From IMG/VR virus record IMGVR_UViG_3300010224_000009: a DNA stretch of 64,000 nt. The stretch is one strand, 5' to 3'. Position numbers and translations under genes: made by a program. This stretch comes from an uncultured virus (IMG/VR IMGVR_UViG_3300010224_000009). Its lineage: Duplodnaviria > Heunggongvirae > Uroviricota > Caudoviricetes. Below the pieces are notes generated by a model, which was not told the origin of the DNA, ran no database searches, and saw only the letters and a program-made list of their open reading frames with translations. This document shows positions 1 to 57,526 of this stretch, piece after piece; within the stretch, counting starts at the first letter, position 1; every line of letters starts with the position of its first letter.

Positions 1-415
1 GCGGCTGCTGAGGCGCAGTAGGCGCGGCAATGGCACGGCAGGCCGGGGCGCGGGCCAGCAGGGGCGGGGCGGAAAGCCCTGCCTTTTAAGCAACTTAGAC
101 TAAAATTGTAATAAAAGTTTAGATTGTTGCATTTGTCTAAAATTTTATGCGTATTTGTCGCGTATTTTAATTGATCGCATTTTAGATAAATTTGCTGCGC
201 ATTTTAATGGCATTTTAATAGATTGGATTTGTGTAAAAGTTTAGACAATTGCAATCCGTTAACCATAAGTCTGGTTTGCGGTTGCGCTTGGGGCAGAAGT
301 GTGGTAGTCGCGGGCGCGTAACGATTTGTTAACCATGTGCTGACAATGCGGTTGCGCTTGCTGGTGGCCCGTGCAATGGTCGGTCTAACAACAACAGCAC
401 AAGGGGGCTTTGCCC

Positions 416-835
416 GTGGAGTTGCTAATAGAGTGCCACCGCGAGGGGCGCAACCAAGATGGCAAGCTTATTGCGCGGGCCATACTGTTTGACGTTGACC
501 CAGACAATTGTTGCAAAACCATTAACGAAATTGCCGAGGTTGAAGTTATTGTTGACCCCGCGCATTGCTACAATCTGCGGCATTTAGCTAAAGTTGTAAC
601 GAGATGGGTAGGCAACGAACCGTTAACCTTTATGAACAAGGGGTTAACGTTTGGCCGCGCAACCGCAACCGGGACCAAGGCGCGCATGGCATTGGTGCAA
701 GTGGTGCAGCGCTGGCAACAGACCGGCAGCACACAACCGCCGCCACCGCCGCCCCGGCAACCGGAGCCGGCACAAATGCGATGGTTAACAGATGATGAAT
801 GGTTAATGGTTTTGGCCAGCCGAGGAGAACTGTAA
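416..835 (+). CDS. early hypothetical protein (Pro-rich linker near C-terminus)
   Basis: ORF 410-835; GTG at 416 follows the repeated promoter/leader (caacaacagcacaaggggg). Confidence 0.7.
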   Translation: MELLIECHREGRNQDGKLIARAILFDVDPDNCCKTINEIAEVEVIVDPAHCYNLRHLAKVVTRWVGNEPLTFMNKGLTFGRATATGTKARMALVQVVQRWQQTGSTQPPPPPPRQPEPAQMRWLTDDEWLMVLASRGEL

Positions 836-836
836 A

Positions 837-980
837 ATGCAAGACAATTTGTATGCACTTGCCACGGTGCGGCTTATGGCCCCGGCACGCAAGCCATGGT
901 TAACGATCCGTAAAGTCGGCGGCTTGCTGCACTGGCGCATTGGGCGCTTGGGCGGCAGCTTCTACCTTGCCAAGCGTTAA
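837..980 (+). CDS. small hypothetical protein, 47 aa (MQDNLYAL...KVGGLLHWRIGRLGGSFYLAKR)
   Basis: Read manually; ATG just after the upstream stop, preceded by GAGGAG; below the ORF-track cutoff. Confidence 0.6.
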   Translation: MQDNLYALATVRLMAPARKPWLTIRKVGGLLHWRIGRLGGSFYLAKR

Positions 981-992
981 CTGAATTTTAAC
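977..992. promoter_or_regulatory. CtrA consensus box
   Basis: TTAA-ctgaatt-TTAAC just upstream of the promoter copy at 1005. Confidence 0.7.
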
Positions 993-1004
993 CACGATCA
1001 GACT

Positions 1005-1072
1005 TGCCGCTTGCATGGGCGGCAGGTTATGCTATTGTCGGTCATCAACAACGCAACAGGGGTTTGCACATG
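1005..1072 (+). promoter_or_regulatory. repeated early sigma70-like promoter plus leader (TTGC..N..TGCTATTGT cggtcat caacaacgcaac RBS ATG)
   Basis: Near-identical copies at ~352-410(+), 1005-1072(+), 1700-1785(-), 1828-1912(+), 2459-2547(-), 2588-2676(+). Confidence 0.8.
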
Positions 1073-1162
1073 CGCATTTCTAGTTCAGCAATTGCCGCTG
1101 CCATGGCTTGCAGCTATGCGGTCGGCGTTTACGCGGTCGTAATGCTGGCTTGGGGGCTGTAA
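1070..1162 (+). CDS. 30-aa hydrophobic peptide
   Basis: ATG directly follows the conserved leader ggggtttgcac; MRISSSAIAAAMACSYAVGVYAVVMLAWGL. Confidence 0.5.
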   Translation: MRISSSAIAAAMACSYAVGVYAVVMLAWGL

Positions 1163-1164
1163 CG

Positions 1165-1329
1165 ATGCAGAAACTTTTAGATAAATTTGCGGCAGACCCT
1201 ACAAAGGCCAACGCGCAGCGCGTGGTCAGGTATGGCAACCGCCATCCCATGTGGCCGGTAACGGCAGGCGGCGAACGCAATATGAAGCTATGGCAAGCAG
1301 CGCAGCGCATGGCCGGTCGGGTAAACTAA
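1165..1329 (+). CDS. small hypothetical protein
   Basis: ATG at 1165 within ORF 1108-1329; followed by GC hairpin ggggc-tta-ggcccc. Confidence 0.55.
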   Translation: MQKLLDKFAADPTKANAQRVVRYGNRHPMWPVTAGGERNMKLWQAAQRMAGRVN

Positions 1330-1334
1330 CAAAC

Positions 1335-1418
1335 GGGGCTTAGGCCCCGGCACGCCTGATAGATACAATTTTAATAAAATTTTAGATATCGGGTATGGCT
1401 TGGGGCGCATGGCCCCTT
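1335..1418. repeat. convergent-terminator block, copy 1 (hairpin - AT core - hairpin)
   Basis: 30-bp exact repeat tttaataaaattttagatatcgggtatggc at 1370-1399 and 2223-2252, flanked by GGGGC/GCCCC hairpins. Confidence 0.8.
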
Positions 1419-1425
1419 GCCCCTG

Positions 1426-1701
1426 TTAAGCCTTGAACTTTACGCTGCCGCAGTTAACTTTGATGGTGCCCGTGCGGCCGTTGGGCTTGTAAACCACCGT
1501 AATAACCCAACCGCGCGTCATGCTAACAAAAGTAAAATCGGTGCCCGCCAAAAGCTTAACGATTTCCGCCTTGTAATCGTTAAAATCTTCATAATCGCGT
1601 TCGTCCTGCCAGCGGCCCCGCAGGTACATAATGCGGTCGTCGTTGGCCTTAAACCATGCTTGCATGGCGTCCAGTGTGGGCGTTGCGCTCTGTGTTTGCA
1701 T
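1426..1701 (-). CDS. early hypothetical protein (MQTQSAT...)
   Basis: ATG at 1701 follows a reverse-strand copy of the conserved leader. Confidence 0.75.
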   Translation of the reverse strand: MQTQSATPTLDAMQAWFKANDDRIMYLRGRWQDERDYEDFNDYKAEIVKLLAGTDFTFVSMTRGWVITVVYKPNGRTGTIKVNCGSVKFKA

Positions 1702-1912
1702 TGGTAAAACCCTTGTGTTTGTTTGGTATGATCGACCATACCACATAGGCCCCAAGGTGCAAGCGCAAGCGCCGATCATGGTTAACAGGCAGTTAACAGC
1801 GGTCTTAGTGATTTGTTAACCATAACCCGCATAGGTAGAAAATAACTGTTGCATGCTGCCATGGGTATGCTATTGTCGGTCATACCAACAACGCAACGGG
1901 GTTTGCACCATG
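1700..1912. promoter_or_regulatory. divergent promoter pair with CtrA boxes between
   Basis: TTAA-caggcag-TTAAC 1782-1797 and TTAG-N7-TTAAC 1805-1820 lie between two outward-facing promoter copies. Confidence 0.75.
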
Positions 1913-2179
1913 CCAATAACTGTGAAGATGTTTTACGCGACCAACGTTTACGGCCATGTATGGTGCTACGTTGAACCGGCCGAAACGCTGATGTCGTTCA
2001 CTGGCGAATATGGCTGGATGGACCGCACCGACCCGCAGTTTGGGGCAAACGCGACCCCGGTGCTTTGCAGCGGCATTAACGATTTGGCAACCCTGTTCGA
2101 GGAAGAAATGGGCGAGGACCTGCTTTCTGGCGGCAGCGGCTATAGCTACCACGAAGTTAACACGGTCGTTAAATTCTAA
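1910..2179 (+). CDS. early hypothetical protein (MPITVK...)
   Basis: ATG follows the conserved leader caacaacgcaacggggtttgcacc. Confidence 0.75.
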   Translation: MPITVKMFYATNVYGHVWCYVEPAETLMSFTGEYGWMDRTDPQFGANATPVLCSGINDLATLFEEEMGEDLLSGGSGYSYHEVNTVVKF

Positions 2180-2270
2180 AGGGGCTTGGGGCGCGGCCCC
2201 TTGCAGCCCTGATAGGTAAAACTTTAATAAAATTTTAGATATCGGGTATGGCGGGGCGCATGGCCCCTTT
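2179..2270. repeat. convergent-terminator block, copy 2
   Basis: Same structure as copy 1; lies between convergent genes. Confidence 0.8.
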
Positions 2271-2272
2271 GG

Positions 2273-2461
2273 TTACTTTAGCAGGTCTGGCGGCTGCAGT
2301 TCAAAAACGCACTTAACGCCCTTCTGCTGGTCGACCGGGCAAATGCCAAGCGCAGGCAGTTCGCACAAGTAGGCGTAGGCCTCGTCAAAGCTGGCAAACG
2401 GGCCAATATGCTGTGTTTCTAAGTTAAGCTGGCCATGCTGCCTAAAAATCACAATGTACAT
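2273..2461 (-). CDS. early hypothetical protein
   Basis: ATG follows a reverse-strand copy of the conserved leader. Confidence 0.7.
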   Translation of the reverse strand: MYIVIFRQHGQLNLETQHIGPFASFDEAYAYLCELPALGICPVDQQKGVKCVFELQPPDLLK

Positions 2462-2676
2462 GGTGCAAACCCTTGTTGCGTTGTTGTTAGACCGAACTTA
2501 CCACAATGGCCCCAAGGTGCAAGCGGGTTTGCCGATCATGGTTAACAAGTGGTAAACTGGACCGTTAACCGGGCATTAACCATTGCGCGCATAGGTAGAA
2601 AATAACTGTTGCGCGCTGCCGTGGTTATGCTATTGTCTGGTCATACCAAACAACAACGCAACGGGGTTTGCACATG
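2459..2676. promoter_or_regulatory. second divergent promoter pair with CtrA boxes
   Basis: TTAA-N7-TAAAC 2542-2557 and TTAA-ccgggca-TTAAC 2565-2580; 25-bp identity cgcataggtagaaaataactgttgc (1828-1852 = 2588-2612). Confidence 0.75.
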
Positions 2677-2997
2677 GGTGACCGCATTGAGCGCATGGTA
2701 GTAGAGGGGCAGCGGTTTACCGTTGCGGGGCTGCTGGAAGAGCACAAGGCTGGCAGGTTTAAGCCCATGGACAAGGCTGATTTTATGGCCTTTGCCGACG
2801 CACCCGAGGGCAGCAAAATGCTTAACGCGCACGACGAGGACTACGATATTAACTATACGTACATACTGGCCCCGCACAAGGCCGAGGGCGTTATACACCT
2901 TGAATGCGTTGCGCAGGTGGATGGCGGCGGCGAATACATTTATATTGCCACCGTGGACCGGGGCGGCATTGTAACGGATTGGGAGCAAATTGGCTAA
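2674..2997 (+). CDS. early hypothetical protein (acidic)
   Basis: ATG follows the conserved leader; ends before hairpin gccccggc-tttgca-gccggggc. Confidence 0.75.
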   Translation: MGDRIERMVVEGQRFTVAGLLEEHKAGRFKPMDKADFMAFADAPEGSKMLNAHDEDYDINYTYILAPHKAEGVIHLECVAQVDGGGEYIYIATVDRGGIVTDWEQIG

Positions 2998-3243
2998 AAT
3001 TGTATCTTTCGGTATGCCCCGGCTTTGCAGCCGGGGCGCGCTTAATTGGTGCCGATAGTTAAAGTTTTAGACTTGTTTGCCGTATGTTTTAATAAAGTCA
3101 CGGGCGATCTTGGTTAACACAATCCTGCCATTACGGTCGGCCAAATACCCGGCTTTTATTAAAAACTGCTGGTCGGCCTTAGTGATTTGTTTACCGACTA
3201 CAATTTTATTTAAAAGCTTGACGATCGTTGGTTCGGCCATGGC

Positions 3244-3759
3244 TTAACGCCGTGCAGTGGCCGCAAGCAAAGTATTAGCGACCCATGGGTGGTCGCGGGT
3301 AATGTACTTCTTGCGCGGCACAAGTATTGTTTGCCCGTTTGGCTGCGGCTCTTCCACCTGTTGCATGTAATAATAAGTATTGTTTGCCTCGTCTATTACT
3401 AGGCTGGCAAACTCTTGCTTTTCTTTGTTTTGCAGTTGCTTGGTTAAGCGCTGCTGGCCGTGCCATGCGTGCCGCAATGCTTCTACCTCTGCCATAGCCA
3501 TTTGGTAGGCCTCTGCAAAGGCCGCTACCCGCGCCCCGTTGGCAGCGTGCAATTCCCTACCAAGGACGGTTAATTTTGTCTTTAACAGTGGCCGCATGTG
3601 GCCATGGTGCTTAACCATGGACGGTATTAATTCGTTAACCTTTTGCGTTAACCGATCGTTAGCCTTAACAACCTCGTCTATATATGATTGCAATATAGCT
3701 AAATCTTTATCGAACTCTGCCTGTGGCTTTTGGGTAAACGGTTCGTAATTAGTGCGCAT
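3244..3759 (-). CDS. coiled-coil hypothetical protein
   Basis: 171-aa ORF with upstream AGGAG on the minus strand. Confidence 0.75.
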   Translation of the reverse strand: MRTNYEPFTQKPQAEFDKDLAILQSYIDEVVKANDRLTQKVNELIPSMVKHHGHMRPLLKTKLTVLGRELHAANGARVAAFAEAYQMAMAEVEALRHAWHGQQRLTKQLQNKEKQEFASLVIDEANNTYYYMQQVEEPQPNGQTILVPRKKYITRDHPWVANTLLAATARR

Positions 3760-4275
3760 TTTAGATATCTCCTGCCGTTACTTGCCTGTTGGTTGTATTG
3801 CGTGGCCCGTGGTTGTGGTAGCCGGTTGCATGGCCAGTTAGCACAATTTTATGTAACTAAGCAAACGATTTTACGCAAATGGTACGCTTTACCGTTTTCC
3901 GAACATTTTTAGTAAAATGCGCACGGGGCGCTGCCGGGTGGCCGTGGGGCGCGGCCCGTGGGCCGAAAGCCATGCCCCAACAGGCAGTTAGCAAAGCGTT
4001 AAGGTCGGAATTAAAGGTTTAATAAAATTGTCGTACGTTCACAATGCCCCTTTTTACTATACTGTGGAGGCAACTATTTTAAATTAATGGTAAGTTTTAT
4101 TTATTAATTAAAATAAGTTAGGTTTAAAGTATAGGGAAACGGCCCTACTTTGTGTGCCGGGTGAACTCTTTAAGCAACAGCTAATATAATAGGCTGCAAG
4201 TTGTCTAAATGTTTAGAGATCGCAGACCGCTTATATTCTGTTTGTGTGGGGCGCAAGCCTAAAGTCGGATCATGG

Positions 4276-4291
4276 TTAACGGGTAGTTAAC
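4276..4291. promoter_or_regulatory. CtrA consensus box
   Basis: TTAA-cgggtag-TTAAC, preceded by the same gatcatgg context as 1782 and 2542. Confidence 0.7.
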
Positions 4292-4674
4292 AGCCGCAGG
4301 CCCCGGCAAGGCCGGTTTCCATCTCGTTAACCTCGGTTATTACATGCGTACATGCGTATATGGAAAATGACCGGGCAAATGGCACGTTGCGCAGGGGCAG
4401 CGCAGCACGTACCTAGCACCAACAACGACCGCGCTAAGCCACCTAGCAGCCCCGCCCACGCGGTCGGCAGGCATGCAAGCTACCACCCTAGCCGCAGCGC
4501 GGCACGCGCGCCACGGGCCAGCTATGGCGGTCGTCCTACCCATGGCAACAGCCCCGACAATGGTTAACGGCCTAAACAGTTTAGTTGCATAACCTGTATT
4601 ATGGAACTTAGATTAAACAGTTTAATTTAACGACCTAAAAGTTTAAATAACCTTTAAAATGTTTAAATGGATGG

Positions 4675-4690
4675 TTAACAAACAGTTAAT
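4675..4690. promoter_or_regulatory. CtrA consensus box
   Basis: TTAA-caaacag-TTAAT. Confidence 0.6.
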
Positions 4691-4947
4691 ACGATCGCTA
4701 AAGTTTTATCTGTTAAAGTTTGTCTAAAATTTAAGCTAAAAACAATCTACTCCTGTCGGCTCTCTAGCTCCGCGCTCCCTCGCGTCTCGGTGTCTGGCAA
4801 ATTCTGCCAAAATTCTTTTCAACGAATGGTTGCGGTTTAAAACCCTGCAACTTGGGGCCACGGGCCGAGAAGAAAATGCCCACATCAGTCACCAGAGAAA
4901 ATTTTACCCCTTGCCAAGCACATAAAATAGCTGCTATTTACCCTCCC

Positions 4948-5640
4948 AGAGCGAAAAGGCAGCCGAGGAAGTCCGGTAAAACGGGCGACGGTCCGATCTC
5001 ACGTATTAGACCATCCGTGAAGGAAGACACACCGATAGCTGCCCTGTCGAGCTAGGATATAAGTCCAAGTACGGTAGCAACCCGAAACGGAGTAGTCATC
5101 TCTCGCTGGGTGACGAATGGTCCAGGGTCAGTGTTGAGCCTTCATCACAAATCGCTGCAACCGCAAGCCGGATAGTGCATTCCTAGCCTTCTAGCTCTTC
5201 CAGTTTAACGAATGCCCCCTCAAGGGCCGCATGTACGATATATTGCGGTCGGCGAGCAGTGGGTAACGGATCGACTTGCTGTTATGGTTGGTCGATCCGT
5301 TCAATTTTGCGGAGCGCCGCGAGCGCTTGTCAACGGGCAACGGTCATCCCCCTTCCGACCCCGACCGTTGGACGCAAGCCGGGATGAGGCGAAGTCACTC
5401 ACCGCTGAACCCGGCACCACTCGTTAGTCTGCCATCGGGCCGCAACACCCTGATGACTAATCCTAATCCGGTTGCAGAGTGCCGGAGGAAGCATGGATGG
5501 AAAGCCTATGGCATAACGAAATCCATGTACTGGGCCAAGTCAGGATGGTCCAGCGCGTCAGAATGAGGCTAATGACAGAAGCCTGACGGAAATATTGTCT
5601 CAGAAAAGGGCATGGTCAGAAATGGCTGTGCCCTTTTCGC
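4948..5640 (+). ncRNA. candidate large structured non-coding RNA (~690 nt)
   Basis: Upstream TTGCCA(4911)..TATTTA(4935); many helices (5265-5275/5291-5301, 5155-5163/5469-5477, 5338-5345/5363-5370, 5491-5498/5521-5528); terminal GAAA-capped hairpin 5603-5638; no credible ORF. Confidence 0.65.
5603..5640 (+). terminator. 16-bp hairpin with GAAA loop, probable terminator or RNA 3' end
   Basis: gaaaagggcatggtca-gaaa-tggctgtgcccttttc (with G-U pairs). Confidence 0.7.
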
Positions 5641-5880
5641 GTTCATAGCCGCCGCAAATTCTGCCATAAATGTTTTCAATAAGCCTAGTTACCCAAAACC
5701 GTTTAACGCTGCTTGTTGCGTGGAATAAAAACACACTATCTAATGCGCAAATTTGCTTGCCATTGAGAGAGCCTTGAGCTAGTTCTGACACTGCCTGCTC
5801 GGGCTTCGTTGGCCGGTCGCCCTCCTCGCTCCAAACGTAACGGTGACCGGCCACTCCATCTCTCGGCACGAGGGACTATC

Positions 5881-6051
5881 GTGCAAGAAGAGAGCATCCT
5901 ACACAAATTCGTGGAGAAATCTGACGAATTGGCCCTGCAAGTCAATGAGCTTGGGGTCATCCTGGACCCGCGCATATACGACGACTGGTTCGTCCTGCTG
6001 AAGAGGGTCAAGGAATGGATGCAAACCTGCGAAAAATCAACGACGGACTAG
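5881..6051 (+). CDS. hypothetical protein
   Basis: GTG at 5881 after GAGGGA. Confidence 0.55.
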   Translation: MQEESILHKFVEKSDELALQVNELGVILDPRIYDDWFVLLKRVKEWMQTCEKSTTD

Positions 6052-6221
6052 ATGAGCTCCTCAAGAAGACGCAGCACATCAATCGGATCATGTTGAAGCA
6101 GGACGACATCATCACGACCTTGCTGCTGAACTTCCGCAAACGGCCAAATCTGGTCAATCCAGACGTTTTCGCTTGGTTTGAGCATGAAGTTGAGCAACTG
6201 AAAGCGCTCAAGTATGAATGA
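6015..6221 (+). CDS. hypothetical protein
   Basis: 68-aa ORF with AAGGA upstream. Confidence 0.6.
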   Translation: MDANLRKINDGLDELLKKTQHINRIMLKQDDIITTLLLNFRKRPNLVNPDVFAWFEHEVEQLKALKYE

Positions 6222-6298
6222 ACGGGCCATGTTCGGCATGCTTTTGCTCGGCACGATCGCCTTTGCGGCGGTAATTTTGATCGGAGGACTGCTTCAAC

Positions 6299-6775
6299 AT
6301 GGCTAAAGTTCGTCCAGAAACCCGCCTGAAACGCTTTGTGAGGGGTAATTATCCCGGATGGAGCGAAGCTTATGAACCCGGCCTGGGGTCAGGGGTCGGC
6401 TATCCTGACATTCAGGTGTTGGGGCCAAGCGGGAAATTGCTCCCGATCGAGCTAAAAATCGGTGTTGTGAAGGCGGGAAGGCTGCATCCGAGCGAAGTTC
6501 GGGGTCCGCAGGTGGTCTGGCACCGCGAATTTGCCCAATCTGGCGGCATTTCAGTGATGCTTATCGGGCTGGAAACCGGCAATGCTTCCGGCAAATTCGA
6601 TCTGTTTTTCGTGCCAGGAATGGACATGATCGACTGGAAAGAGGGATACGAATTCGACAAATTGCACCATATTATGGCTGACGACCCGCTTCTGAGTGAG
6701 AGATTTGTCGGTTTGGTGCAGTATTTCCTCAAGGAAAGCCCTGTCAGCCCCTTGCGCGCTGTGGCGGTCGCATAA
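6299..6775 (+). CDS. PD-(D/E)XK nuclease, VRR-NUC / Holliday-junction resolvase-like
   Basis: GYPDIQV...IELKIG...QVVWHREF..SGG motif. Confidence 0.75.
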   Translation: MAKVRPETRLKRFVRGNYPGWSEAYEPGLGSGVGYPDIQVLGPSGKLLPIELKIGVVKAGRLHPSEVRGPQVVWHREFAQSGGISVMLIGLETGNASGKFDLFFVPGMDMIDWKEGYEFDKLHHIMADDPLLSERFVGLVQYFLKESPVSPLRAVAVA

Positions 6776-6808
6776 TATAACGAGGGCCGAACCTACGGAG
6801 CCGCTCCC

Positions 6809-7450
6809 GTGACCGAGATTACCGCCGAAGACCTGACGATCAAGGACCTGTTCCTCAAGGCCGAGCTTGACAAGGTCGATTACGACCCCGAACTGGCGAC
6901 CATGTTCTGCCAGAACATCATGGAAGGCAACTCCATGATCGAGGCGGCGTGCGGCGTCTATGCTTCCGACGACACTCCCGGCATGTGGGAAAGCGACGAT
7001 CCGGACGAGCAGAAGCAGCTTGATCGGGAATTGCGCAAGCACGGGGCCGCGCTTCTGCGGAAATTTAAGCGCTGGATGGTGCTCAACGACCGCTTCGACC
7101 AGATGGTCAAGCTGGCGCTCCAGCAGCGCTGCTATGCCTACGTCGAAGAGATGGTCGAGATCGCTGACGATGCGACCGACGATGCTGTGATGGGGGCCAC
7201 CGGGCCGACGATCAACGGTCGCGCCATTCGGCGTGCCGAACTGATGATCAACACCCGCAAGTTCGTGGCTTCCAAGCTGCTGCCGAAGGTTTTCGGCGAC
7301 AAGACCCAAATGGAACTGACCGGCGCAGACGGCAAGGACCTCGGTCCGGTTGCGTTCAATATTCAACTTATCCCATCGGGCGCTTTTGTCACGGCAGAAC
7401 AGGCGCTCAAGGAAGCAGAGGAGCGAGACGGCGGTGCTCCAGCCACCTAA
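6809..7450 (+). CDS. terS: terminase small subunit
   Basis: EEMVEIADD...AIRRAELMINTRKFVASKLLPKVFGDK..ELTGADG, typical TerS C-terminal half. Confidence 0.8.
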   Translation: MTEITAEDLTIKDLFLKAELDKVDYDPELATMFCQNIMEGNSMIEAACGVYASDDTPGMWESDDPDEQKQLDRELRKHGAALLRKFKRWMVLNDRFDQMVKLALQQRCYAYVEEMVEIADDATDDAVMGATGPTINGRAIRRAELMINTRKFVASKLLPKVFGDKTQMELTGADGKDLGPVAFNIQLIPSGAFVTAEQALKEAEERDGGAPAT

Positions 7451-7478
7451 ACCGAGAAGTGTCGGTGATCGTACCGGC

Positions 7479-7835
7479 ATGGAACTGATCAGCCTCGCAC
7501 AACGGCTGAAAGTTCGTGAGAATTTCGCAAAGCAGGCCAACAGGCACCTGCAAGGACAAGAAATCAGCGAAGCCAACACCAACGACATTATCACCTATCT
7601 GGCAAGATATGGCGGTCGGGTCGAGGTTCGTGGCTTGGGGACATTTTTTGTTGTCGATGTGCCTGCAAAACCGCGTGTCGTGAACGGTTTAACTATTGTC
7701 AGACCTGCACGGCGCATAGTAGACTTCAAGCAGTCGACACTACTCCGCGACATGCTGAACAACGACTTTTTCAGCGATGAGGTTCCAACGCCCAACAGCG
7801 ATTATTTCGTTGAAGTGCGGAACATCATGCTGTAG
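7479..7835 (+). CDS. HU/IHF-like DNA-binding protein
   Basis: GRVEVRGLGTFFV..VPAKP....TIVRPARRIVDFKQSTLLRDMLN matches the HU beta-arm motif. Confidence 0.75.
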   Translation: MELISLAQRLKVRENFAKQANRHLQGQEISEANTNDIITYLARYGGRVEVRGLGTFFVVDVPAKPRVVNGLTIVRPARRIVDFKQSTLLRDMLNNDFFSDEVPTPNSDYFVEVRNIML

Positions 7836-7941
7836 GCGATCTCCGTAATTGGCTGGCCCTTGGAGATCGTCGACATTCGGCGGCGGGGACACTGACCGCA
7901 CTCTGGTTTCCGGGGTGCGGTCGATCTCTAAGAGGGCTTGA

Positions 7942-8425
7942 ATGGACACCTTTCATCTCTGCCAGCCTGCTCGACAAGAGCTTGTCCCCACGAACAATTT
8001 CGTTGCTGCTGGCGGCGGCAATGACGGCGGCTCAACGACCAACATTCCGTTCGAGGTCTCTTCCTCGTTCACGGGCGGTTCCGACGCCGGTGAGNNNNNN
8101 NNNNNNNNNNNNNNNNNNNNNNNNNNNNNNNNNNNNNNNNTCCGACGACGGTGAGGCTGTCTGGACTTATGCCGCAACGCAGAAGTTCACCATTCCGGCC
8201 AACTTTGTCAATTCCCGCGCCGCTGTCGACCCCGATACGTTCAACGGCTCGTTCCGGATCATGCTGAACGGTGTGCAGATCGGCACGGTCAGCTTCGTCA
8301 ATGGCGTCGAGAGCTTCACCGGCGCTGGCGGCACCGTGGTCCCTGACGACGAGTTGCAGTTGGTGGCCAATTCGGCCTACGACTTCACCAGCATGTCGAT
8401 TTCCCTCCGTGGAGTGCGCGCCTGA
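7942..8425 (+). CDS. putative virion/fibre-associated protein spanning an N gap
   Basis: 5' part (7942 frame) and 3' part (ending 8425) joined across Ns 8095-8140, whose flanks are near-identical. Confidence 0.6.
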
Positions 8426-8862
8426 TGCTGACCTCCGTTCCGGCGGTCGCGTCCGCCATGGCCAATGCTGCTGCCTCGAAGGCTGAAGAAGGCAACCTGC
8501 TGGCCAATTCTCGGATCGTTCTATACGCTGGCCCGGTTCCAGGAAACGCTCAGTCTGCTCTCGTTGGGGCCAACACCGTCCTTGCGACGATCAATTTGGA
8601 CGCCACAAACCCGTTCCAAGCGGCAGAAATTGACACCGACATGCGTGTGGCCGAATGTCTGGCCACCAATATCCCGGACACCCCGGCCTCGGCAAACGGC
8701 ACGGTGACCTTCTATCGTCAGTTCAACCGCAACAACGAGGTCATTTGGCAAGGCATTGTCACTGGCCCGGACGACGGCGGCGATCTCACCTTGACCAGCG
8801 TCAACGTCATAGCAGACGTTAACGTTATCTTGCAGCGGTACTCAATCCGCGTGCCGTACTAA
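8425..8862 (+). CDS. ~140-aa fibre-subunit paralog 1
   Basis: Shared pattern lYaG..P.nA..al....LatI.l....F..A...........A.A.Gt.tFyR.......v.wqG.V.....GGD..l.svn....v.v. Confidence 0.75.
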   Translation: MLTSVPAVASAMANAAASKAEEGNLLANSRIVLYAGPVPGNAQSALVGANTVLATINLDATNPFQAAEIDTDMRVAECLATNIPDTPASANGTVTFYRQFNRNNEVIWQGIVTGPDDGGDLTLTSVNVIADVNVILQRYSIRVPY

Positions 8863-8873
8863 GAGGAAAACCA

Positions 8874-9308: not shown

Positions 9309-9321
9309 GGGTCTTCAATAA

Positions 9322-11717: not shown

Positions 11718-11784
11718 CAACTTCGCACTTGTCCGTTGGCCAGTCTGTGCCGTAATATGCCGCCAATTGTAGCGGTCGGACCCC

Positions 11785-12222: not shown

Positions 12223-12232
12223 GGAGATCACA

Positions 12233-12652: not shown

Positions 12653-12664
12653 TCGGAGCCAACG

Positions 12665-18460: not shown

Positions 18461-18682
18461 ATGCAAGAAGAGAAGTACGACGNNNNNNNNNNGCGCACGG
18501 CGCAAGCTATTGCGGAAGCAGATACAAAGATTGGTCGCGCCCTTGGCATACGACCCGAAGCAGACCTGAACCGAAAGCAGCTTCGCCAGCAGCGCGCGAA
18601 AATGCGCCCGTTCAAACGCAAGCTGGAAAAGCTCAAGCAGGAACAGGCTCGTATTCAGGCGAAGATCGATGCCGCTACGTGA
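18461..18682 (+). CDS. basic coiled-coil protein (spans N gap; start uncertain)
   Basis: ORF track; Ns at 18483-18492. Confidence 0.45.
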   Translation: MQEEKYDXXXXRTAQAIAEADTKIGRALGIRPEADLNRKQLRQQRAKMRPFKRKLEKLKQEQARIQAKIDAAT

Positions 18683-51632: not shown

Positions 51633-52046
51633 TCAGCCCTCGTAGCGTGGATTGCGGGTAGCGATCATTTCGTTCAGCGTATCTATGACGCGGGTCGAAC
51701 TGAAATGTGCCAGCATGGCGTCCGGCAGTATGGTGATATGCGCCTCAAGGCCCCTGAGCATGGCGCAATCCGGCTCAAGTTGTTCGCGGGTGTAGTAGCT
51801 TATGCGGAACCCTAGCCCGCGCCCATTGGCACCGTTGCCAAGCGTCACCTGCTGCATAGCATAGGGTGCTAAAACAGGATATTTGCCAGCAAGGAACACG
51901 CGGGCTTTGTCCATATGTTCATGGAGGTCAAGCCTGCTGCAAATGAAAATGCTGTGCCCATGACCGCGCTCGAAGCGGGCCAGTGCGTCAATGACTGCCT
52001 TTGTGTGACAATCAACTTCCTTCTTGGGGCGCGTTCTCATACCCAT
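51633..52046 (-). CDS. hypothetical protein
   Basis: 137-aa ORF in the operon. Confidence 0.6.
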   Translation of the reverse strand: MGMRTRPKKEVDCHTKAVIDALARFERGHGHSIFICSRLDLHEHMDKARVFLAGKYPVLAPYAMQQVTLGNGANGRGLGFRISYYTREQLEPDCAMLRGLEAHITILPDAMLAHFSSTRVIDTLNEMIATRNPRYEG

Positions 52047-52570
52047 CCTCTTTTATACATTTCCAGGAAGCATCGCCCCAAGGCCATAGTGTCTGGTCCG
52101 GCGCGGTGGTGGTCAGAGAAGTCAACACCGAACAGCTTCTCGTGCAGCTTACCAAGGCTAAGACGATAACCTTGCAGCCATTCTGTCGCCTCAACCGTGC
52201 AGATTACAGGCGGCAGTTTTATTTCCATGCCAAGGCGCATGAACTCAATGGTCAGCATGTCGGTATCGAACGCGGCATTGTGTGCCACGATCAAATCGAA
52301 CTGGCTCATAAAGTCTGCAATTTCCTGAGCGTGTGACTTGAAGTAGTTGCAGTTCGCAACCATCTCGTCATTGATGCCTGTGATCCGATGAATTTCGTCT
52401 GTGATCTTCACTGGAGGCTTGATGAGCAGGGGCAGCGTGGTCCCAAGCTCGTCTTTCTCTGTGTCAGCCTCTACGCAGAAATATTCGATGATATGAGGCT
52501 GCTTGGCTAGGGGCCTACCGAAATTATCGATAAGCCCCGTGGTTTCCGTATCGAATATCCCGGCTCTCAT
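52037..52570 (-). CDS. dnaQ: DEDDh 3'-5' exonuclease (Pol III epsilon-like)
   Basis: FDTETTG, VAHNAAFD, HRA..D. Confidence 0.92.
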   Translation of the reverse strand: MRAGIFDTETTGLIDNFGRPLAKQPHIIEYFCVEADTEKDELGTTLPLLIKPPVKITDEIHRITGINDEMVANCNYFKSHAQEIADFMSQFDLIVAHNAAFDTDMLTIEFMRLGMEIKLPPVICTVEATEWLQGYRLSLGKLHEKLFGVDFSDHHRAGPDTMALGRCFLEMYKRGWV

Positions 52571-53112
52571 TTCTGGACGGGAGGTTCCGGAATTACGGCT
52601 GGCGGGGCGGGGTCGGCGGGTTCTCCGTCGAGAACGAGGCTGGCTTCGTCGGCCTCCGTGGACTGTTCGGGAAGCTCACTTGGCTCAACGACGGCTTCCT
52701 GATCAGCATGATGAACGGGCTGTCCAAGGTAACTGAGTGGGTCGATGATGAGCATGCGTTCGTTGCCGGTGATTTCGAGACCGGGATGGGCTTCGCTTGG
52801 GGCTTCATCCTCGGTCGGAAAGGTGGCAATTTCTGCATCAACCTCCGCCAGCATCGCGGTGTAAACCATGTCATCATGCAGGCTGTCCGAATGTCCGCCA
52901 GTATTGAAGTTCTCGCAGTAACGGGTCAGCTTGGCGACCTTCTGGGTCAGCAGTCCGAACCGATTATGGTCATCAATGCCGTCAAGCTTGACGCCGTTGG
53001 GAAACAGTGCGAGCATCACTTCGCCATGGCGCTTGTAATTGTCGCCATAGATTTTGTTACGCTCTTCATAGGTGTCTGCGCCCGAGCGCAGTAGTTCGGG
53101 GACGGTGGTCAT
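52567..53112 (-). CDS. all-alpha nucleotide pyrophosphatase-like / nucleotide-modification-associated domain protein
   Basis: EERNKIYGDNY...K..KL.R.......HSDSLHD..VY.AML (DUF6378-like pattern). Confidence 0.6.
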   Translation of the reverse strand: MTTVPELLRSGADTYEERNKIYGDNYKRHGEVMLALFPNGVKLDGIDDHNRFGLLTQKVAKLTRYCENFNTGGHSDSLHDDMVYTAMLAEVDAEIATFPTEDEAPSEAHPGLEITGNERMLIIDPLSYLGQPVHHADQEAVVEPSELPEQSTEADEASLVLDGEPADPAPPAVIPEPPVQK

Positions 53113-53555
53113 CCAATGGCTCCGTTTCTGACCTGCCAACATTCAATGCCAGCATTGCGCAGGGCTTCCACAACGTCGTCGCGGTCCTCAAGAGCAATGA
53201 TGGTTGCGTCGGGATATAGCTCCCGCACTTGCTCCAGATAAGCCAGCTTGAGGGCTGGCTCCTTGGTCTTTGGAATATCGAAATTGTCCCGCATTAGCAT
53301 ATGGTCCGGATGCACATTAAACGCGGCCAACTGCTTGCGGGTCTCTTCCCGATACTTCTCATAACGGCCCGTCACCACTACAAGCTCAAATGTCGACCAA
53401 TAAACAGACGACAGGAACTCGCAGATGAACGGGTGGCACGGGTCCTTTGGGGCGAGCCTTTCGTACTCGTCCCAATCGCCAGCCTTCATGAAATGGAGCC
53501 GGTGAGCATTGTCGGTCAAAGCGCCTTCAAGGTCCACCATTAGAACGCATGTCAT
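53109..53555 (-). CDS. HAD-family phosphatase (PNKP phosphatase-like)
   Basis: VDLEGAL (DxDGT variant), VTGR, LMR, LK, LEDRDDVV. Confidence 0.75.
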   Translation of the reverse strand: MTCVLMVDLEGALTDNAHRLHFMKAGDWDEYERLAPKDPCHPFICEFLSSVYWSTFELVVVTGRYEKYREETRKQLAAFNVHPDHMLMRDNFDIPKTKEPALKLAYLEQVRELYPDATIIALEDRDDVVEALRNAGIECWQVRNGAIG

Positions 53556-54055
53556 TCGACGGCCTCAGCCTTAATGCGTTCGCTGCCCCAAATGCGGGCA
53601 AGCTCGTCCATAATAACTTCACGGCGGTCGATGAAGTTCTTGGCCTTGGCCATACCTTCCAGCATGTCGCTGACATATGGCCAGTGATGTTCGGCTGGCT
53701 GAGAAAGCATGACATTGCAACCGTAGCCGAAACCGCTGAACGTGACAAAGCCGCAATGCCGCTCCGCCATGGAGCCGACAGTGTAGCCAATTTCGAACGC
53801 GGTGCCGGGGTCACGATCATCGATGCAGGCGACGACTATGTAGCTCGTGTCGATAGCTTCAATGTTTCGGTGATAAATCTCGTGGGCGACCTTAGCCCGC
53901 TCTTCCGGGGTCATGTCCACAAGAACCGGGCTGAGGTCACGCGGGTCGCAGACCGTGAAGCCAAGTTCACGCAGGCCCTTGATAGCAGCATCCATAACGG
54001 CGCGCTGCTGGTCGTTGAAGAAAGGTCCTGCTGCATAAATGTCGTACTTATACAT
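53552..54055 (-). CDS. nucleoside 2-deoxyribosyltransferase-family protein
   Basis: IYAAGPFF, N..AI.....VVA..D..DPGTAFEIGY, NVML. Confidence 0.85.
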   Translation of the reverse strand: MYKYDIYAAGPFFNDQQRAVMDAAIKGLRELGFTVCDPRDLSPVLVDMTPEERAKVAHEIYHRNIEAIDTSYIVVACIDDRDPGTAFEIGYTVGSMAERHCGFVTFSGFGYGCNVMLSQPAEHHWPYVSDMLEGMAKAKNFIDRREVIMDELARIWGSERIKAEAVE

Positions 54056-54065
54056 ATTCGCTCCG

Positions 54066-55223
54066 TTAAGCTGCCGGGTCGGGGATAGTTTGCATGTAGA
54101 GTTCCTGCCACATGCCTTTGGTCAGTTCGCGCTTGCTCATGTAGCCCATGATCTCGGCCCGCTGCTGACCGCTTGGGGCAAGGTCGTTGAAGCCATACCA
54201 CAAGGGGCAGGCCGGGGCCGGGTCTTTGCCCTCGTGCCGCAGGAGGTTGTCACGCCCTACGGGGCAGTGATCCTTGCCGTCACAAGGCAAAAGGAACGCG
54301 CCGTCGTCCCCAAAGGCATCATTCATGGCCCGAATGACGGGTGCCCACAAGTCCTCCTGCGCGATCCAGCAATTGCGCTTCCTGAGCATGCCCACGGCCA
54401 TGCTGGTAGGCATTACCATGGCCAAGCTAATGCAGGAGCTCACAGGAGCGGTGACAGCGTTGCGGTTGACATACTGCCACAGGGTATCTGTGAACATGAT
54501 TGGCCGGTGGCGCACAATTTGCGCCCGCAGCACAATCGGGATGCTCTTCAGATACACATGGACAAAGTCGCCCATGCGGGTAGCCTTGTCGTCCTTGTAC
54601 GGCTTGGAAACTTCCTCCATCTTGGGGAGCAAGTCCGCGTAGCCGTAAGTCCCGATCGGTACGTTATGGTAGATGGTGTCCTTGATCACGGTCTTGAGCC
54701 GCAGACCAAACTCGCTGAACATCGACAGCACGGAATTGTCCCGCTCAGAGCCGTCCATGAGAATGTTCTCAACGAACGCATGAATGGCGTCAGCGAAACG
54801 CAACAGAGTACGGGCCGAAAGCTTGACGGTGAACTCGGTCAAGTACACCATGGACAGCATTTCGCGGTAGTTGTCCTGTGCCTGCGTCGCCTTGCGGGCC
54901 ATCATGGTGTCGTAGCACAGCATGACTTCCGGATGGTTGACATACATCGGAGGAACTTCCCATTCCTCCAGATTGTCGACGCGGCTGGTGCGCGCCCATG
55001 CCACATGGTCCCTGAGGCTGAACAGCATCTCGCGGATAATAATCGGCACCTTCATCTGGAGGATAAAGTCCTCCATTTCGTTCACTGGCACGTCGATCTT
55101 GATGACGTCTTCAATAGAAGAGGTCGTGTCGTTCGGCCGACTGGTGCCCCAAGCCTTAGCGACAAAAACGCCCGTAGGCGCGCGGAGGACCGTAACCTCC
55201 ATGGATGCTGCTTTGATACCCAT
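54066..55223 (-). CDS. divergent tandem ThyX-like flavin-dependent protein
   Basis: PIVLRAQIVRHR in the second half; degenerate PIIIREMLFSLR....ARTSR in the first half; Cys-rich tail. Confidence 0.55.
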   Translation of the reverse strand: MGIKAASMEVTVLRAPTGVFVAKAWGTSRPNDTTSSIEDVIKIDVPVNEMEDFILQMKVPIIIREMLFSLRDHVAWARTSRVDNLEEWEVPPMYVNHPEVMLCYDTMMARKATQAQDNYREMLSMVYLTEFTVKLSARTLLRFADAIHAFVENILMDGSERDNSVLSMFSEFGLRLKTVIKDTIYHNVPIGTYGYADLLPKMEEVSKPYKDDKATRMGDFVHVYLKSIPIVLRAQIVRHRPIMFTDTLWQYVNRNAVTAPVSSCISLAMVMPTSMAVGMLRKRNCWIAQEDLWAPVIRAMNDAFGDDGAFLLPCDGKDHCPVGRDNLLRHEGKDPAPACPLWYGFNDLAPSGQQRAEIMGYMSKRELTKGMWQELYMQTIPDPAA

Positions 55224-55224
55224 G

Positions 55225-55893
55225 TTAAAACCCCTTGAAGAAAGCGCCGAACTGCATGGTCTTTTCGATGCGAGACCGATTGAGGATGGAGGAAAGTTCT
55301 TCCATCACCCAAAGCAGTGGGTCGTCTTTGTCGGCATTGGCAAGCATGGCTCCCATGACCTCGGAGACTTCCTGCGATACGCGCAGGAACGAGCGGTTGC
55401 CGAGCATGGAAAATTCAACCATGGTCTTATACACCACGGCGGCAAAGTCTGCCAGCTTGACAATGCGGCCTTCGATGCTCTTGTCCTTGGCCTTGCTCCA
55501 AGTCTCAAGCAGCGGTATCTTGAGGACTTCTTCCAGCCGAGTGATGGCCCGCAGTTCATACGCCTTGAGGCCGTCGGTGACCATGGTCGACGAATACTTG
55601 GCGGGCCGGTCAATGTCGCCGGTCAGCACTTCTTCAAGGTCGTGCGTCACTGCCTTCTTCAGCAATTCAGACATGCTGACCAAGACACCCTTTTGCCGGG
55701 TGCGCTCGCCGATGACATAGGCAAATGCCACGACAAAGCCCATGTGTTCCAGCAGGCTTTCGCGCTTGACCATGTGGTCGCGGGAATAGCGCTGCACATT
55801 GCTGGCTTGGTTCAGAATTTCCAGGAGGTTCTGCACATCGCGCTCCACGACATGCTTGGGGTTCAGTAGTGCCTGCTCGGTCTTCGCGTCCAT
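55225..55893 (-). CDS. HD-domain 5'-deoxynucleotidase (YfbR-like)
   Basis: V.RY....ESLLEH, HDLEEVLTGDI..PAK, IVKLAD. Confidence 0.85.
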   Translation of the reverse strand: MDAKTEQALLNPKHVVERDVQNLLEILNQASNVQRYSRDHMVKRESLLEHMGFVVAFAYVIGERTRQKGVLVSMSELLKKAVTHDLEEVLTGDIDRPAKYSSTMVTDGLKAYELRAITRLEEVLKIPLLETWSKAKDKSIEGRIVKLADFAAVVYKTMVEFSMLGNRSFLRVSQEVSEVMGAMLANADKDDPLLWVMEELSSILNRSRIEKTMQFGAFFKGF

Positions 55894-56543
55894 CAGTTGT
55901 CGCCCTCGGTTGCGGACTTCTTTTTCTTCTTGAGCCTGCCGTCAACTTCCTCGTAGAAGTCGAACTTGACAATCTGCCCCACGGTCAGCCCAAGCTTTTC
56001 GTAATCGATCTCCTCGCCCGCCTTGATCTTCTGGCGGACAAATGCTTGCAGGCTGGAGGCATGCACGCCTTCAACCATTTCTTCTTCGAACTCGACCTCC
56101 TCGTTCGGGTCGTATTCTTTCAGCATTTCGCGCACGCGGGCAAAGAAGTCCTTGGCCGCGTTGTGCATGTTCTTGGGGAACCGGACCGAAATGTCGGTCT
56201 TGATCAGCGCCGCGCCGCCAGCTTCTTCCAGCACTTGGAGAGCCTGCTCTTTGTCAAACTCTTCCTTGGGCAAGGAGCCGCTGACATAGCTGTCCAGCTT
56301 GGTTTTGATCTTGCCATCTTGGCTCTCGTATTTGCCCATGTTGGCATCTTTCATAAGATTGACCAACTCGAACTGCTTAATACGATTGAAGCGTCCCACG
56401 TTTACCTTGAGCGCTTCGTTGAGACTGTCGATGGTTTCCTGGATCGCGGCAGCTTCTTGCACGAGTGCCACGATCTTGTCGAGCTTGTCGGAGGAGGCGT
56501 CTGCCTCCTCCTTTGCCTTGGCTATGCGTTCCAGCAAGTCCAT
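55893..56543 (-). CDS. conserved phage replication-module protein
   Basis: Coiled coil followed by VHASSLQAFVRQ motif. Confidence 0.7.
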   Translation of the reverse strand: MDLLERIAKAKEEADASSDKLDKIVALVQEAAAIQETIDSLNEALKVNVGRFNRIKQFELVNLMKDANMGKYESQDGKIKTKLDSYVSGSLPKEEFDKEQALQVLEEAGGAALIKTDISVRFPKNMHNAAKDFFARVREMLKEYDPNEEVEFEEEMVEGVHASSLQAFVRQKIKAGEEIDYEKLGLTVGQIVKFDFYEEVDGRLKKKKKSATEGDN

Positions 56544-56545
56544 GG

Positions 56546-57382
56546 TTACATGGCCTGCCCGGTGTCGGCCTGCGCACGGCCACCGCGACCGCCGCCTTCC
56601 GAACCACCTTCATCGAGGGTGGAGGTGTCAGCCTTGGCCTCGCCGTCGTCAATGCTCTTCTTGAGCTTCTCGGCCCGGTTGAAGATCATCTCGGCGAAGG
56701 CTGCATTTTCCTCGGCGATTTCCGGCAGGCTCTTGTGCCGTTCCAGGGTCCAGCCGATCCAGCTTCCCTTAGCATTGCTTTCCGGCACGGAGCCGAGCGA
56801 ATACGAACGGAAATAGAACGGAGCCTGAATTGCATCACCGTTCGGCAGGTTGATTTCTTCCGTGGTCGCCAGCGTCAGCCAGCGGCGGGACTTCTTCAAC
56901 TGCGTGGAGGTCATGGCAATATAGCTCGGGCGCGCGTTGGCGCTCAAGTTCAGGCCGTAAATCTGCGCGGTTTCCACGACGTAGTTGCCGTTCGGCAGAG
57001 CATCGCGGCCCATTGCGTCCGGGCTGGTCTGTGCCATGATGGCGTCGTCGGGGTAAATGTTCTGCAGACCCTTGCCGCTGTCGCGCGGTGCCCATTCAAT
57101 CCAAACCTTGTCGAAGTGGACCGGGACAAAGATCATTGGCTTGGTAATGATCTCGCTGAGGCCGGTGTCGAAGATCATGCCGGGCTTGTACTTTTCGTCA
57201 TACTCCGGCTTGCCCATCGTCACTTGGGGGCTGTTGGACTGGATGATGGTCAGGCGAGGAATGAGAAGGTCGTTCGCCGTAACCTTTTCGAGACCAGTCG
57301 CTTTGCCAACGAAACGGTTGACGTCGAAACCGGCTGCCGGAAGCTTTTCAGCTTCCTTCATTGCTACTTCTTTAGATGCCAT
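56546..57382 (-). CDS. putative ssDNA-binding / recombination protein
   Basis: GLE.V...DLLIPRL.I.Q..SPQV, IEW.PR..G.G, N.KGSW; acidic Gly-rich tail; AGGA RBS. Confidence 0.65.
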   Translation of the reverse strand: MASKEVAMKEAEKLPAAGFDVNRFVGKATGLEKVTANDLLIPRLTIIQSNSPQVTMGKPEYDEKYKPGMIFDTGLSEIITKPMIFVPVHFDKVWIEWAPRDSGKGLQNIYPDDAIMAQTSPDAMGRDALPNGNYVVETAQIYGLNLSANARPSYIAMTSTQLKKSRRWLTLATTEEINLPNGDAIQAPFYFRSYSLGSVPESNAKGSWIGWTLERHKSLPEIAEENAAFAEMIFNRAEKLKKSIDDGEAKADTSTLDEGGSEGGGRGGRAQADTGQAM

Positions 57383-57526
57383 TGGGTTTGGTTCCTGGAG
57401 CGCTTGAAAACGGCCTATCCGTTCACATTTTGGCTCAACTACCATGTTTAACCGCTTTTGCAGGCGGTGCAACGTTTAAAAGTTTAAATGTGCTAAATAC
57501 CTGTTAATAAAGGGCTTTCAATGTGT

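Follow-up and report, generated by a model that had tools for sequence, protein, structure and literature searches.

The window analysed here is a stretch of 64,000 nucleotides (nt) from the IMG/VR virus record IMGVR_UViG_3300010224_000009, an uncultured tailed phage of the Caudoviricetes, and its first 4744 nt have been purged of a single dinucleotide step, GA and its complement TC. Positions 1-4744 contain 139 GA (observed/expected ratio 0.45) and 113 TC (0.40), whereas the ratios are 1.05 and 1.09, respectively, in positions 4745-64000; when both are counted together, the segment stands at 0.43 and the remainder at about 1.05. In strand-symmetric 1-kb windows, the five lying within the segment range from 0.40 to 0.56, whereas all 59 later ones reach at least 0.84. 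The 252 GA/TC of the segment also compare with a mean of 609 (standard deviation 55, minimum 445) in 653 other 4744-nt windows of the genome, and the binomial z of its count is -15.4. The regional purge, proposed in a first-pass annotation made from the letters of the window, is thus confirmed by counting.

The purge is symmetric between strands and sharp-edged. At the right edge, the maximum-likelihood change point is 4745. For the left edge, the sequence preceding window base 1 was taken from a second IMG/VR record, G001, a circular-type assembly showing a 100% match to the sampled 31-letter words of the window; regions beyond 64 kb are given below in window-equivalent coordinates, in which the whole phage genome measures about 74.7 kb, the window representing most of it. 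GA/TC density stays normal as far as the last bases upstream of window base 1 and then drops immediately. What has been purged is therefore one discrete unit, about 4745 bp long. The record of the window begins no more than about 20 nt from this left compositional edge, a coincidence whose chance is about 0.001, and the small terminase gene is found 2 kb downstream.

It is the dinucleotide, rather than a longer word, that is avoided. The 16 most depleted of the 64 trinucleotides are exactly the 16 that contain GA or TC, and the 4-mers containing GA/TC are all depleted (0.07-0.89), with TAGA/TCTA as the sole exception (1.86); no longer motif behind the purge emerged from this k-mer analysis. 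The TNTC targeting of DarT-type enzymes, cited in the first-pass annotation as an example of what the segment might evade, is not supported, as TNTC (0.40) is no more depleted than CNTC (0.32), the ratios of GNTC and ANTC being 0.46 and 0.55. GATC does persist, as had been noticed, with 12 occurrences versus about 3 expected from the dinucleotide content of the segment itself. Intergenic DNA is depleted too (45.6 GA/TC per kb versus 132 per kb), but the residual intergenic GA/TC do not lie mostly in three recurring word families, as had been believed: only 37 of 99 fall within the TTAGA, GATC or GTCGG families. Other shifts accompany the purge. AA/TT is at 1.41 in the segment versus 1.19, the AA+TT excess being of the same order as the GA+TC deficit in segment counts; GC and TA are also up, TAA/TTA is enriched 4.7-fold, and the G+C content is 0.50 versus 0.56.

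TT is enriched in the segment (1.38-1.44) and CC is unavoided (1.06), in agreement with the earlier observation that neither is shunned. These values bear on a hardening of the early template against ultraviolet light, in which TC would have been purged as the main (6-4) photoproduct site. TC is indeed the depleted dipyrimidine, and a low hazard per site would leave a purge incomplete; however, TT, the main dimer site, is enriched even across codon boundaries (z +4.5), and CC is spared, which leaves this explanation hardly credible.

The segment contains ten small open reading frames (ORFs) of 30-171 amino acids (aa), on both strands, behind repeated promoter and leader cassettes. Its features, with isoelectric points (pI) where they are marked, are as follows:

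1..4744, no strand assigned: GA/TC-purged segment, with small genes, repeated promoter cassettes and many CtrA-type half-sites
90..250, no strand assigned: AT-rich array of TTTAGAC/GTCTAAA-type words, left inner edge (repeat families D1 and I11)
416..835, plus strand: g1, 139 aa, ORF behind a conserved leader; 25 GA, 1 TC
837..980, plus strand: g2, 47 aa, basic, pI 11.7, predicted as an ORF; 2 GA, 3 TC
1003..1069, plus strand: promoter and leader cassette (repeat families D3, D9, D10, D14 and I5)
1070..1162, plus strand: g3, 30 aa, hydrophobic peptide, directly 3' of a leader cassette copy; 0 GA, 4 TC
1165..1329, plus strand: g4, 54 aa, basic, predicted as an ORF
1426..1701, minus strand: g7, 91 aa, starting at a minus-strand leader cassette copy; 13 GA and 3 TC on the coding strand
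1849-1909 and 2609-2673, plus strand; 1702-1797 and 2462-2557, minus strand: further cassette copies
1910..2179, plus strand: g5, 89 aa, acidic (pI 4.2), from ORF and repeat analysis
2273..2461, minus strand: g8, 62 aa; 1 TC on the coding strand
2674..2997, plus strand: g6, 107 aa, acidic (pI 4.6), orphan; 0 TC, and 20 of 20 GA in Asp/Glu codons
3067..3240, minus strand: g9, 57 aa, basic, predicted as an ORF
3244..3759, minus strand: g10, 171 aa; 6 TC on the coding strand
4560..4745, no strand assigned: AT-rich array of the same TTTAGAC/GTCTAAA words, right inner edge, ending exactly at the change point

The counts for g6, g8 and g10 are those that the first-pass annotation had reported (about six TC having been given for g10). 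The TTTAGAC/GTCTAAA-type words of the two arrays carry a large share of the retained GA/TC, and repeat family I3 pairs 219-248 with 4720-4749, that is, one inner edge with the other.

The genes were compared with a synonymous recoding control, in which the ten segment genes are given the codon usage of 35 late/middle genes. They contain 153 GA/TC, versus 302±9.7 under recoding, and 94 of these 153 belong to Asp/Glu codons and are unavoidable. Asp and Glu are not depleted in the segment proteins; serine makes up 2.4% of their residues versus 6.0%. Codon shares differ accordingly between the segment and the late/middle genes for TTC (0.21 versus 0.74), ATC (0.15 versus 0.60), CTC (0 versus 0.21), GTC (0.17 versus 0.42) and GGA (0.02 versus 0.11). 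The avoidance extends to stop codons, which are TAA in 10 of 10 segment genes, whereas the reference set has 18 TAA and 17 TGA (p about 0.001), and to signals outside the genes, the -35 boxes and ribosome sites of the segment being GA-free variants: the cassettes have a TTGC-type -35 box and a GGGG ribosome site, and the density of TTGAC is 1.05 per kb versus 3.11 per kb in late/middle genes.

When synonymous codons were shuffled within the segment, its own codon usage being preserved, avoidance was still found across codon junctions, with 4 TC versus 27 expected (z -6.1) and 22 GA versus 59 expected (z -7.7), and TC and GA are the two most avoided of the 16 junction dinucleotides. No such avoidance is seen in the late/middle genes (582 TC versus 567, and 887 GA versus 939). 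These results show that the purge arose by selection, and not by chance or plain codon bias, and that the target of this selection is the GA/TC step in duplex DNA. Codon-shuffle and cross-codon controls agree in this respect, and the earlier proposal of selection on one dinucleotide in one genome segment is thereby upheld.

The same codon data allow mutation pressure to be considered in place of selection. A TC-specific cytosine deaminase repeatedly hitting the segment would convert TC to TT and GA to AA, possibly because end resection and annealing expose a terminal repeat as single strands. The raised AA/TT and lowered G+C of the segment, the AA+TT excess comparable in order to the missing GA+TC, the replacement of TTC, ATC and GTC mostly by TTT, ATT and GTT, and that of TGA by TAA are all in line with such a footprint, and the segment shares with APOBEC/DddA-type deamination a depletion of TC/GA and a rise of TT/AA on both strands. 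However, T|C is also avoided where the second codon is one for Pro, His, Gln or Arg (3 versus 19.7±3.4 expected), even though C-to-T changes there would alter the protein, and a plain TC-to-TT footprint, also among the examples initially offered, is therefore insufficient. The segment further differs from APOBEC/DddA-type cases in that the NGA codons GGA, CGA and AGA are depleted too (0.31 for GA at codon positions 2-3) and in being regional, with sharp edges. Moreover, A-ending codons rise as well (ATA 0.27 versus 0.07, GTA 0.22 versus 0.08, TTA 0.24 versus 0.01), and a partly purged neighbouring block, described below, lies outside any putative repeat. We consider this explanation improbable.

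It could also be imagined that the deficit is a by-product of composition, that is, of weak codon adaptation in early orphan genes added to AT-rich words and TTAAC sites. Mild deficits do exist elsewhere, the ratio of GA/TC in the terminal repeat over the rest being 0.81 for phiCbK and 0.81 for T5 (0.99 for SPO1; Lacusarx, whose record does not start at its repeat, was left out of this comparison), and the 4.7-fold enrichment of TAA/TTA and the upward shifts of GC and TA are what such a by-product would bring. Nevertheless, the same ratio is 0.40 for the present segment, far beyond these comparators; shuffles preserving its own codon usage still reveal an avoidance specific to TC and GA across codons, whereas the phiCbK repeat, only mildly shifted in GA/TC (1.04 versus 1.28), shows none in its genes; all 16 GA/TC trinucleotides rank lowest; and stops, ribosome sites and -35 boxes are affected. 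A compositional by-product is thus most improbable.

The segment could finally have come from elsewhere, as a chimeric assembly or as DNA of another genome with a GA/TC-poor signature, and its distinct dinucleotide profile and the absence of homologues of its proteins from the phage collection are in keeping with this. Restriction-site avoidance argues otherwise. GANTC, the CcrM/HinfI word, is absent from the 74.7-kb genome (0 versus about 284 expected), the segment included (0 sites); elsewhere in the genome, 20 hexamer palindromes do not reach 0.1 of expectation, twelve being absent altogether, and GAATTC, GGATCC and AGATCT occur once each. These results show that the restriction-proofing of this genome is unusually thorough. 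Among the avoided palindromes, 17 are free of GA/TC and occur at most once each in the genome's remaining part; within the segment, they total 2 versus 29.6±5.8 expected from its own dinucleotide content, whereas palindromes tolerated by the genome are present there. CTAG, GTAC and ACGT are likewise under-represented in segment and rest alike, TTTAGAC arrays and TTAACCAT promoters run on into the neighbouring 65.7-74.7 kb block, and the same junctions are found in the independent record G001. As the genome's own restriction-site avoidance is common to both parts, the segment is native to the phage, and a chimera or a recent import, of which the former had been named as something that would refute the purge, is very unlikely.

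The purge is not confined to a single step at the edge of the segment. A 9-kb block located upstream on the circular map, which the first-pass annotation did not mention, is partly depleted. GA/TC observed/expected is 1.08 in 4.7-57.5 kb (late and middle genes), 1.02 in 57.5-65.7 kb and 0.80 in 65.7-74.7 kb, an early block beyond the window end whose small plus-strand genes run into window base 1. Cross-codon avoidance is found in this block, with 42 TC versus 81 expected (z -5.5) and 169 GA versus 211 (z -4.7), and not in the 57.5-65.7 kb block. GATC (0.75) and TCGA (0.67) are also low in 65.7-74.7 kb, whereas they are over-represented in late genes. The purge is thus graded, following early-to-late gene order, with a large step at window base 1.

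The early block and the segment share their putative host signals. The segment holds 22 GTTAAC and 13 TTAACCAT/ATGGTTAA sites (the CtrA half-site word), and the 65.7-74.7 kb block holds 10 GTTAAC and 12 TTAACCAT/ATGGTTAA sites. All 25 TTAACCAT/ATGGTTAA sites of the genome lie within 65.7-74.3 kb and 1-4.7 kb (13.7 kb), none being found in 4.7-65.7 kb, and 32 of the 34 GTTAAC sites lie in the same region. A third AT-rich array (TTTAGACAAA words) is located at about 65.70-65.90 kb, outside the window. The 65.7-74.7 kb block nevertheless retains TTGACA promoters and GGAG ribosome sites, and as this neighbouring CtrA-site block is only mildly depleted, the purge is not simply tied to reading by CtrA or the host polymerase. 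Late/middle genes and the early regions differ in another way: strong cross-codon avoidance of TA (z -13.9), CC (z -10.7) and GG (z -8.1) is found in the former and is absent from 1-4744 and 65.9-74.7 kb, so that the two parts of the genome are under different dinucleotide regimes beyond GA/TC.

The sequence identifies the phage as a myovirus distantly related to Agrobacterium phage 7-7-1. Genes for large and small terminase, portal, protease, capsid, sheath, baseplate and endolysin were recognised, as well as, for replication, a DNA polymerase III alpha-type polymerase, a primase and an SNF2-type helicase. The nearest isolates, Synechococcus phages Ssp-JY38 and Yong-L2-223 and Agrobacterium phages 7-7-1, Milano and OLIVR4, share 44-58% identity in the large terminase (TerL) and the capsid protein, and a nucleotide search of the phage collection gave no match to the window DNA. 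The same dinucleotide test detected no purge in the relatives 7-7-1 and Ssp-JY38, nor in any of five related IMG/VR genomes with 55-58% capsid identity.

We favour, with a probability of roughly 0.37, i.e. somewhat over one in three, the view that targets are avoided in DNA lying exposed while the phage is not yet in control, on the pattern of the first-step-transfer DNA of T5. The segment would be the immediate-early module of the phage, probably situated at a physical end of the virion DNA, where it may form a direct terminal repeat of some 4.7 kb, and it would thus lie exposed, and have to function, before any phage protein exists. The coincidence of the record start with the compositional edge and the small terminase gene 2 kb downstream make a physical terminus, perhaps with a terminal repeat, likely, and it is the record start that suggests a first-entering position. 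One may postulate an activity that acts upon GA/TC steps in DNA, each single site having only a small chance of being hit, the candidate agents being a host enzyme that cuts, nicks, deaminates or otherwise damages DNA or, alternatively, an early nuclease of the phage itself that degrades host DNA. Every GA/TC in the module would be a small liability, removed unless required by the protein sequence or by an essential binding word. Once early proteins are made, the hazard would be neutralised or become irrelevant, so that later-acting DNA could keep normal GA/TC, the adjoining delayed-early block being intermediate. The incomplete and additive character of the purge fits such a low-probability hazard; true restriction sites, by comparison, have been eliminated outright.

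The precedent of T5 is instructive in this respect. According to passages of PMC10644984, nuclease defences fail against T5-like phages except where their sites lie in the first-step-transfer repeat, and the way these phages spare their own DNA from degradation is called unclear there. First-step-transfer DNA of T5/BF23 resembles the segment in forming a discrete, end-proximal module whose small genes have host-type promoters and whose inner edge is rich in repeats. Here, the ten small ORFs stand behind predicted host-type promoters, host-nuclease sites are missing (0 GANTC; 2 avoided palindromes versus 29.6 expected), and the AT-rich array 4560-4745 at the change point is, from its sequence, a candidate for a signal that halts injection. 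EcoRI sites number 0 in the T5 repeat and 3 in the 30 kb that follow, and the first-step genes show a weak though significant cross-codon avoidance (T|C 0.83, z -3.0; G|A 0.77, z -4.2; C|T 0.64), whereas in the next genes G|A is not avoided (0.97, z -0.7), T|C is avoided less (0.90, z -2.5) and C|T is in excess (1.33). The T5 1-10219 repeat has a dinucleotide shift of its own, with GA/TC at 0.80, AG/CT at 0.79, GC at 1.52 and CG at 1.31. The two cases differ in that T5 has lost specific sites, its GA/TC being lowered only to 0.80, whereas a whole dinucleotide is here brought down to 0.43; in that no homologues of A1, A2 or dmp were found in the present phage by Pfam and PHROG; and in that the rest of the present genome is restriction-proofed, unlike the later-entering DNA of T5.

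Other known systems share single traits with the segment. Passages of PMC9437464 describe several alphaproteobacterial phages whose CtrA sites cluster in terminal repeats or gap regions, with CtrA binding; these LPEG phages resemble the segment region in their concentrated CtrA-type sites and small genes, and those passages contain no report on dinucleotide composition. The concentration found here is one of word counts, rather than of the scoring matrix used in PMC9437464. As for restriction-site avoidance, its classic form is present throughout the genome, and the purge comes on top of it, bearing on a two-letter step in every context and in one region. DNA modification with 7-deazaguanine by DpdA has a GA motif. 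No Pfam/PHROG match to DpdA (tRNA-guanine transglycosylase family) or to preQ0 genes was obtained in any ORF scanned, and the relative Ssp-JY38 has DpdA/preQ0 genes annotated, yet no purge. A full-text literature search returned no description of a regional dinucleotide purge in phages, and the phenomenon is best filed as a new form of target avoidance in first-exposed phage DNA.

Several points weigh against this preferred reading. No GA/TC-specific enzyme was recognised in the phage, the ten segment proteins giving no Pfam, PHROG or clear fold match, and we know, with a literature search included, of no bacterial defence that reads GA/TC. The activity itself, its identity and its neutralisation by early proteins are postulated, and so are a terminal repeat and two-step entry. 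Replication genes are also expressed from the infecting DNA, yet they are unpurged. As 252 GA/TC remain, the hazard could be reduced only about 2.4-fold. No such purge exists in the terminal repeat of phiCbK, which has a ratio of 0.81 and no avoidance across codons, or in that of SPO1 (0.99). Finally, the phage carries genes linked to phages with hypermodified thymidine, which favours a modification of its own DNA. These genes belong to a cassette with the following features:

52037..57472, minus strand: nucleotide-metabolism cassette (Pfam/PHROG-type matches)
54066-55223, minus strand: ThyX-like protein, 385 aa (Pfam Thy1 match below cut-off)
55225-55893, minus strand: HD 5'-deoxynucleotidase-like protein

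The cassette also includes an RNase T-type exonuclease, a PNK-like kinase, an HAD phosphatase, a deoxyribosyltransferase-like protein and Pam3 gp33- and gp34-like proteins, no solved relative having been found for the latter two. In a tblastn search, the ThyX-like protein matched 4 of 50,697 phage records (YerA41, vB_Yru_GN1, Carin-5 and phiXF1), with 29% identity and an E value of 2e-30 to YerA41 QSM00782.1, and homologues of the HD protein were present in 3 of the 3 records tested. YerA41 DNA contains a bulky substitution of thymidine, according to PMC9023294; passages of PMC12686479 present Carin-5 as T-hypermodified and list QSM00782.1 as a thymidylate-synthase variant proposed to make 5hmdUMP. 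Like YerA41 and Carin-5, phages linked to the 5-hydroxymethyl-deoxyuridine (dU) pathway, the present phage thus has homologues of both the thymidylate-synthase variant and the HD protein, and it may, judging from these genes, carry modified thymidine.

The corresponding explanation is that the phage hypermodifies a non-canonical thymidine (e.g. 5-hydroxymethyl-dU-derived) at TC after replication; the purged early module would stay plain and readable by the unmodified host RNA polymerase and CtrA, and early proteins would then adapt the cell to the modified template. T followed by C represents about 30% of T in the bulk genome. Besides the ThyX-like and HD homologues, this explanation draws on the PNK-like kinase, phosphatase and deoxyribosyltransferase-like protein of the cassette; on the lack of the ThyX-like gene in all five related IMG/VR genomes, which are also without purge; on the GA-free -35 boxes and ribosome sites of the segment; and on the palindromes of 4.7-57.5 kb, where hexamers containing GA/TC are less avoided (median 0.78 versus 0.31, Mann-Whitney p = 0.02) and GATC (1.20) and TCGA (1.15) are unavoided. 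Against it, GANTC, GAATTC, GGATCC and AGATCT have been eliminated from the bulk genome, and bulk GA/TC is therefore not generally shielded. Scans of phiXF1, YerA41 and Carin-5 revealed no regional purge of any dinucleotide, GA/TC being in fact the most over-represented dinucleotide in these three cassette-bearing genomes (1.42, 1.32 and 1.36, respectively). The ORFs scanned yielded no recognisable transferase, DNA-kinase family, DpdA or methyltransferase; the ThyX-like protein may be a normal thymidylate synthase; and the DNA of G001 was assembled from ordinary metagenome sequencing. In addition, TTGACA and GGAG signals persist in the CtrA-promoted block, where depletion goes no further than 0.80. 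We regard such a self-modification as the close rival of the preferred reading, with a probability only slightly lower.

Both options raised in the first-pass annotation thus survive in part. For modification by the phage itself, the argument from CtrA and the host polymerase is weakened, because a block with 12 CtrA half-sites, TTGACA and GGAG is only mildly depleted, and the ThyX-like and HD homologues of T-hypermodified phages provide an indirect support that was not part of it. For the evasion of a host defence, the graded, early-first pattern and the T5 precedent fit, whereas the DarT and plain deaminase examples do not.

Whatever its cause, a selection that over 4.7 kb has reshaped codons, stops, promoter boxes and ribosome sites implies that some molecule reads the GA/TC step. 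Either outcome would be new biology, be it a dinucleotide-specific immune or nuclease activity or a context-specific thymidine hypermodification of which the early module is the sole unmodified island. The phage provides a built-in control, as purged and unpurged DNA are present on one molecule. One bolder idea, which we hold to be doubtful, is that a two-letter-specific activity against GA/TC, either a host TC-directed nuclease or deaminase or the phage's own nuclease against host DNA, is countered by a GA/TC-free landing module that is the first to enter and to act, and that this phage represents one case of a wider, undescribed strategy in which the dinucleotide differs by phage.

The segment proteins themselves give few clues to function. 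Pfam and PHROG scans of all segment ORFs, A1, A2 and dmp included, gave no match. Three homologues of g1, with 38-52% identity, were found in a search of 1.84 billion representatives; the best Foldseek match of its model (predicted local distance difference test, pLDDT, 87) is RNase T (E 4e-3, TM 0.35), which indicates no clear fold, and when it was compared with all representative chains, the highest Z was 5.9, for unrelated proteins, so no fold or function is claimed. For g10, one homologue with 64% identity was found in protein libraries; its model (pLDDT 74) predicts a long helical hairpin and a small beta domain, and no fold match was obtained. A protein database search with g6 returned only g6 itself, and tblastn of g10 and g6 against the phage collection gave no match. 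The DNA encoding the g1 and g10 homologues was not found in viral, metagenome or genome contigs, nor was the segment leader motif in viral contigs.

Some further observations concern the records and the remainder of the window. The ends of G001 overlap by 80 nt with one mismatch (A or G), at window-equivalent 2038-2117; one variant creates an extra TC/GA within gene g5, and the mismatch could reflect a population polymorphism or two differing repeat copies. Between 2038 and 63801, the window exceeds G001 by 85 nt, and it contains runs of N at 8095-8140, 18483-18492 and 24544-24553 (66 bases in total). Directly past the change point, window 4745-5270 is a TC-rich stretch of about 0.5 kb with no convincing ORF and no Rfam match, and scans for RNA families and tRNAs found none. 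Window 8425-13081 contains five tandem phrog_3758 paralogues, a virion structural family of 140 aa, interleaved with two larger phrog_24741 proteins.

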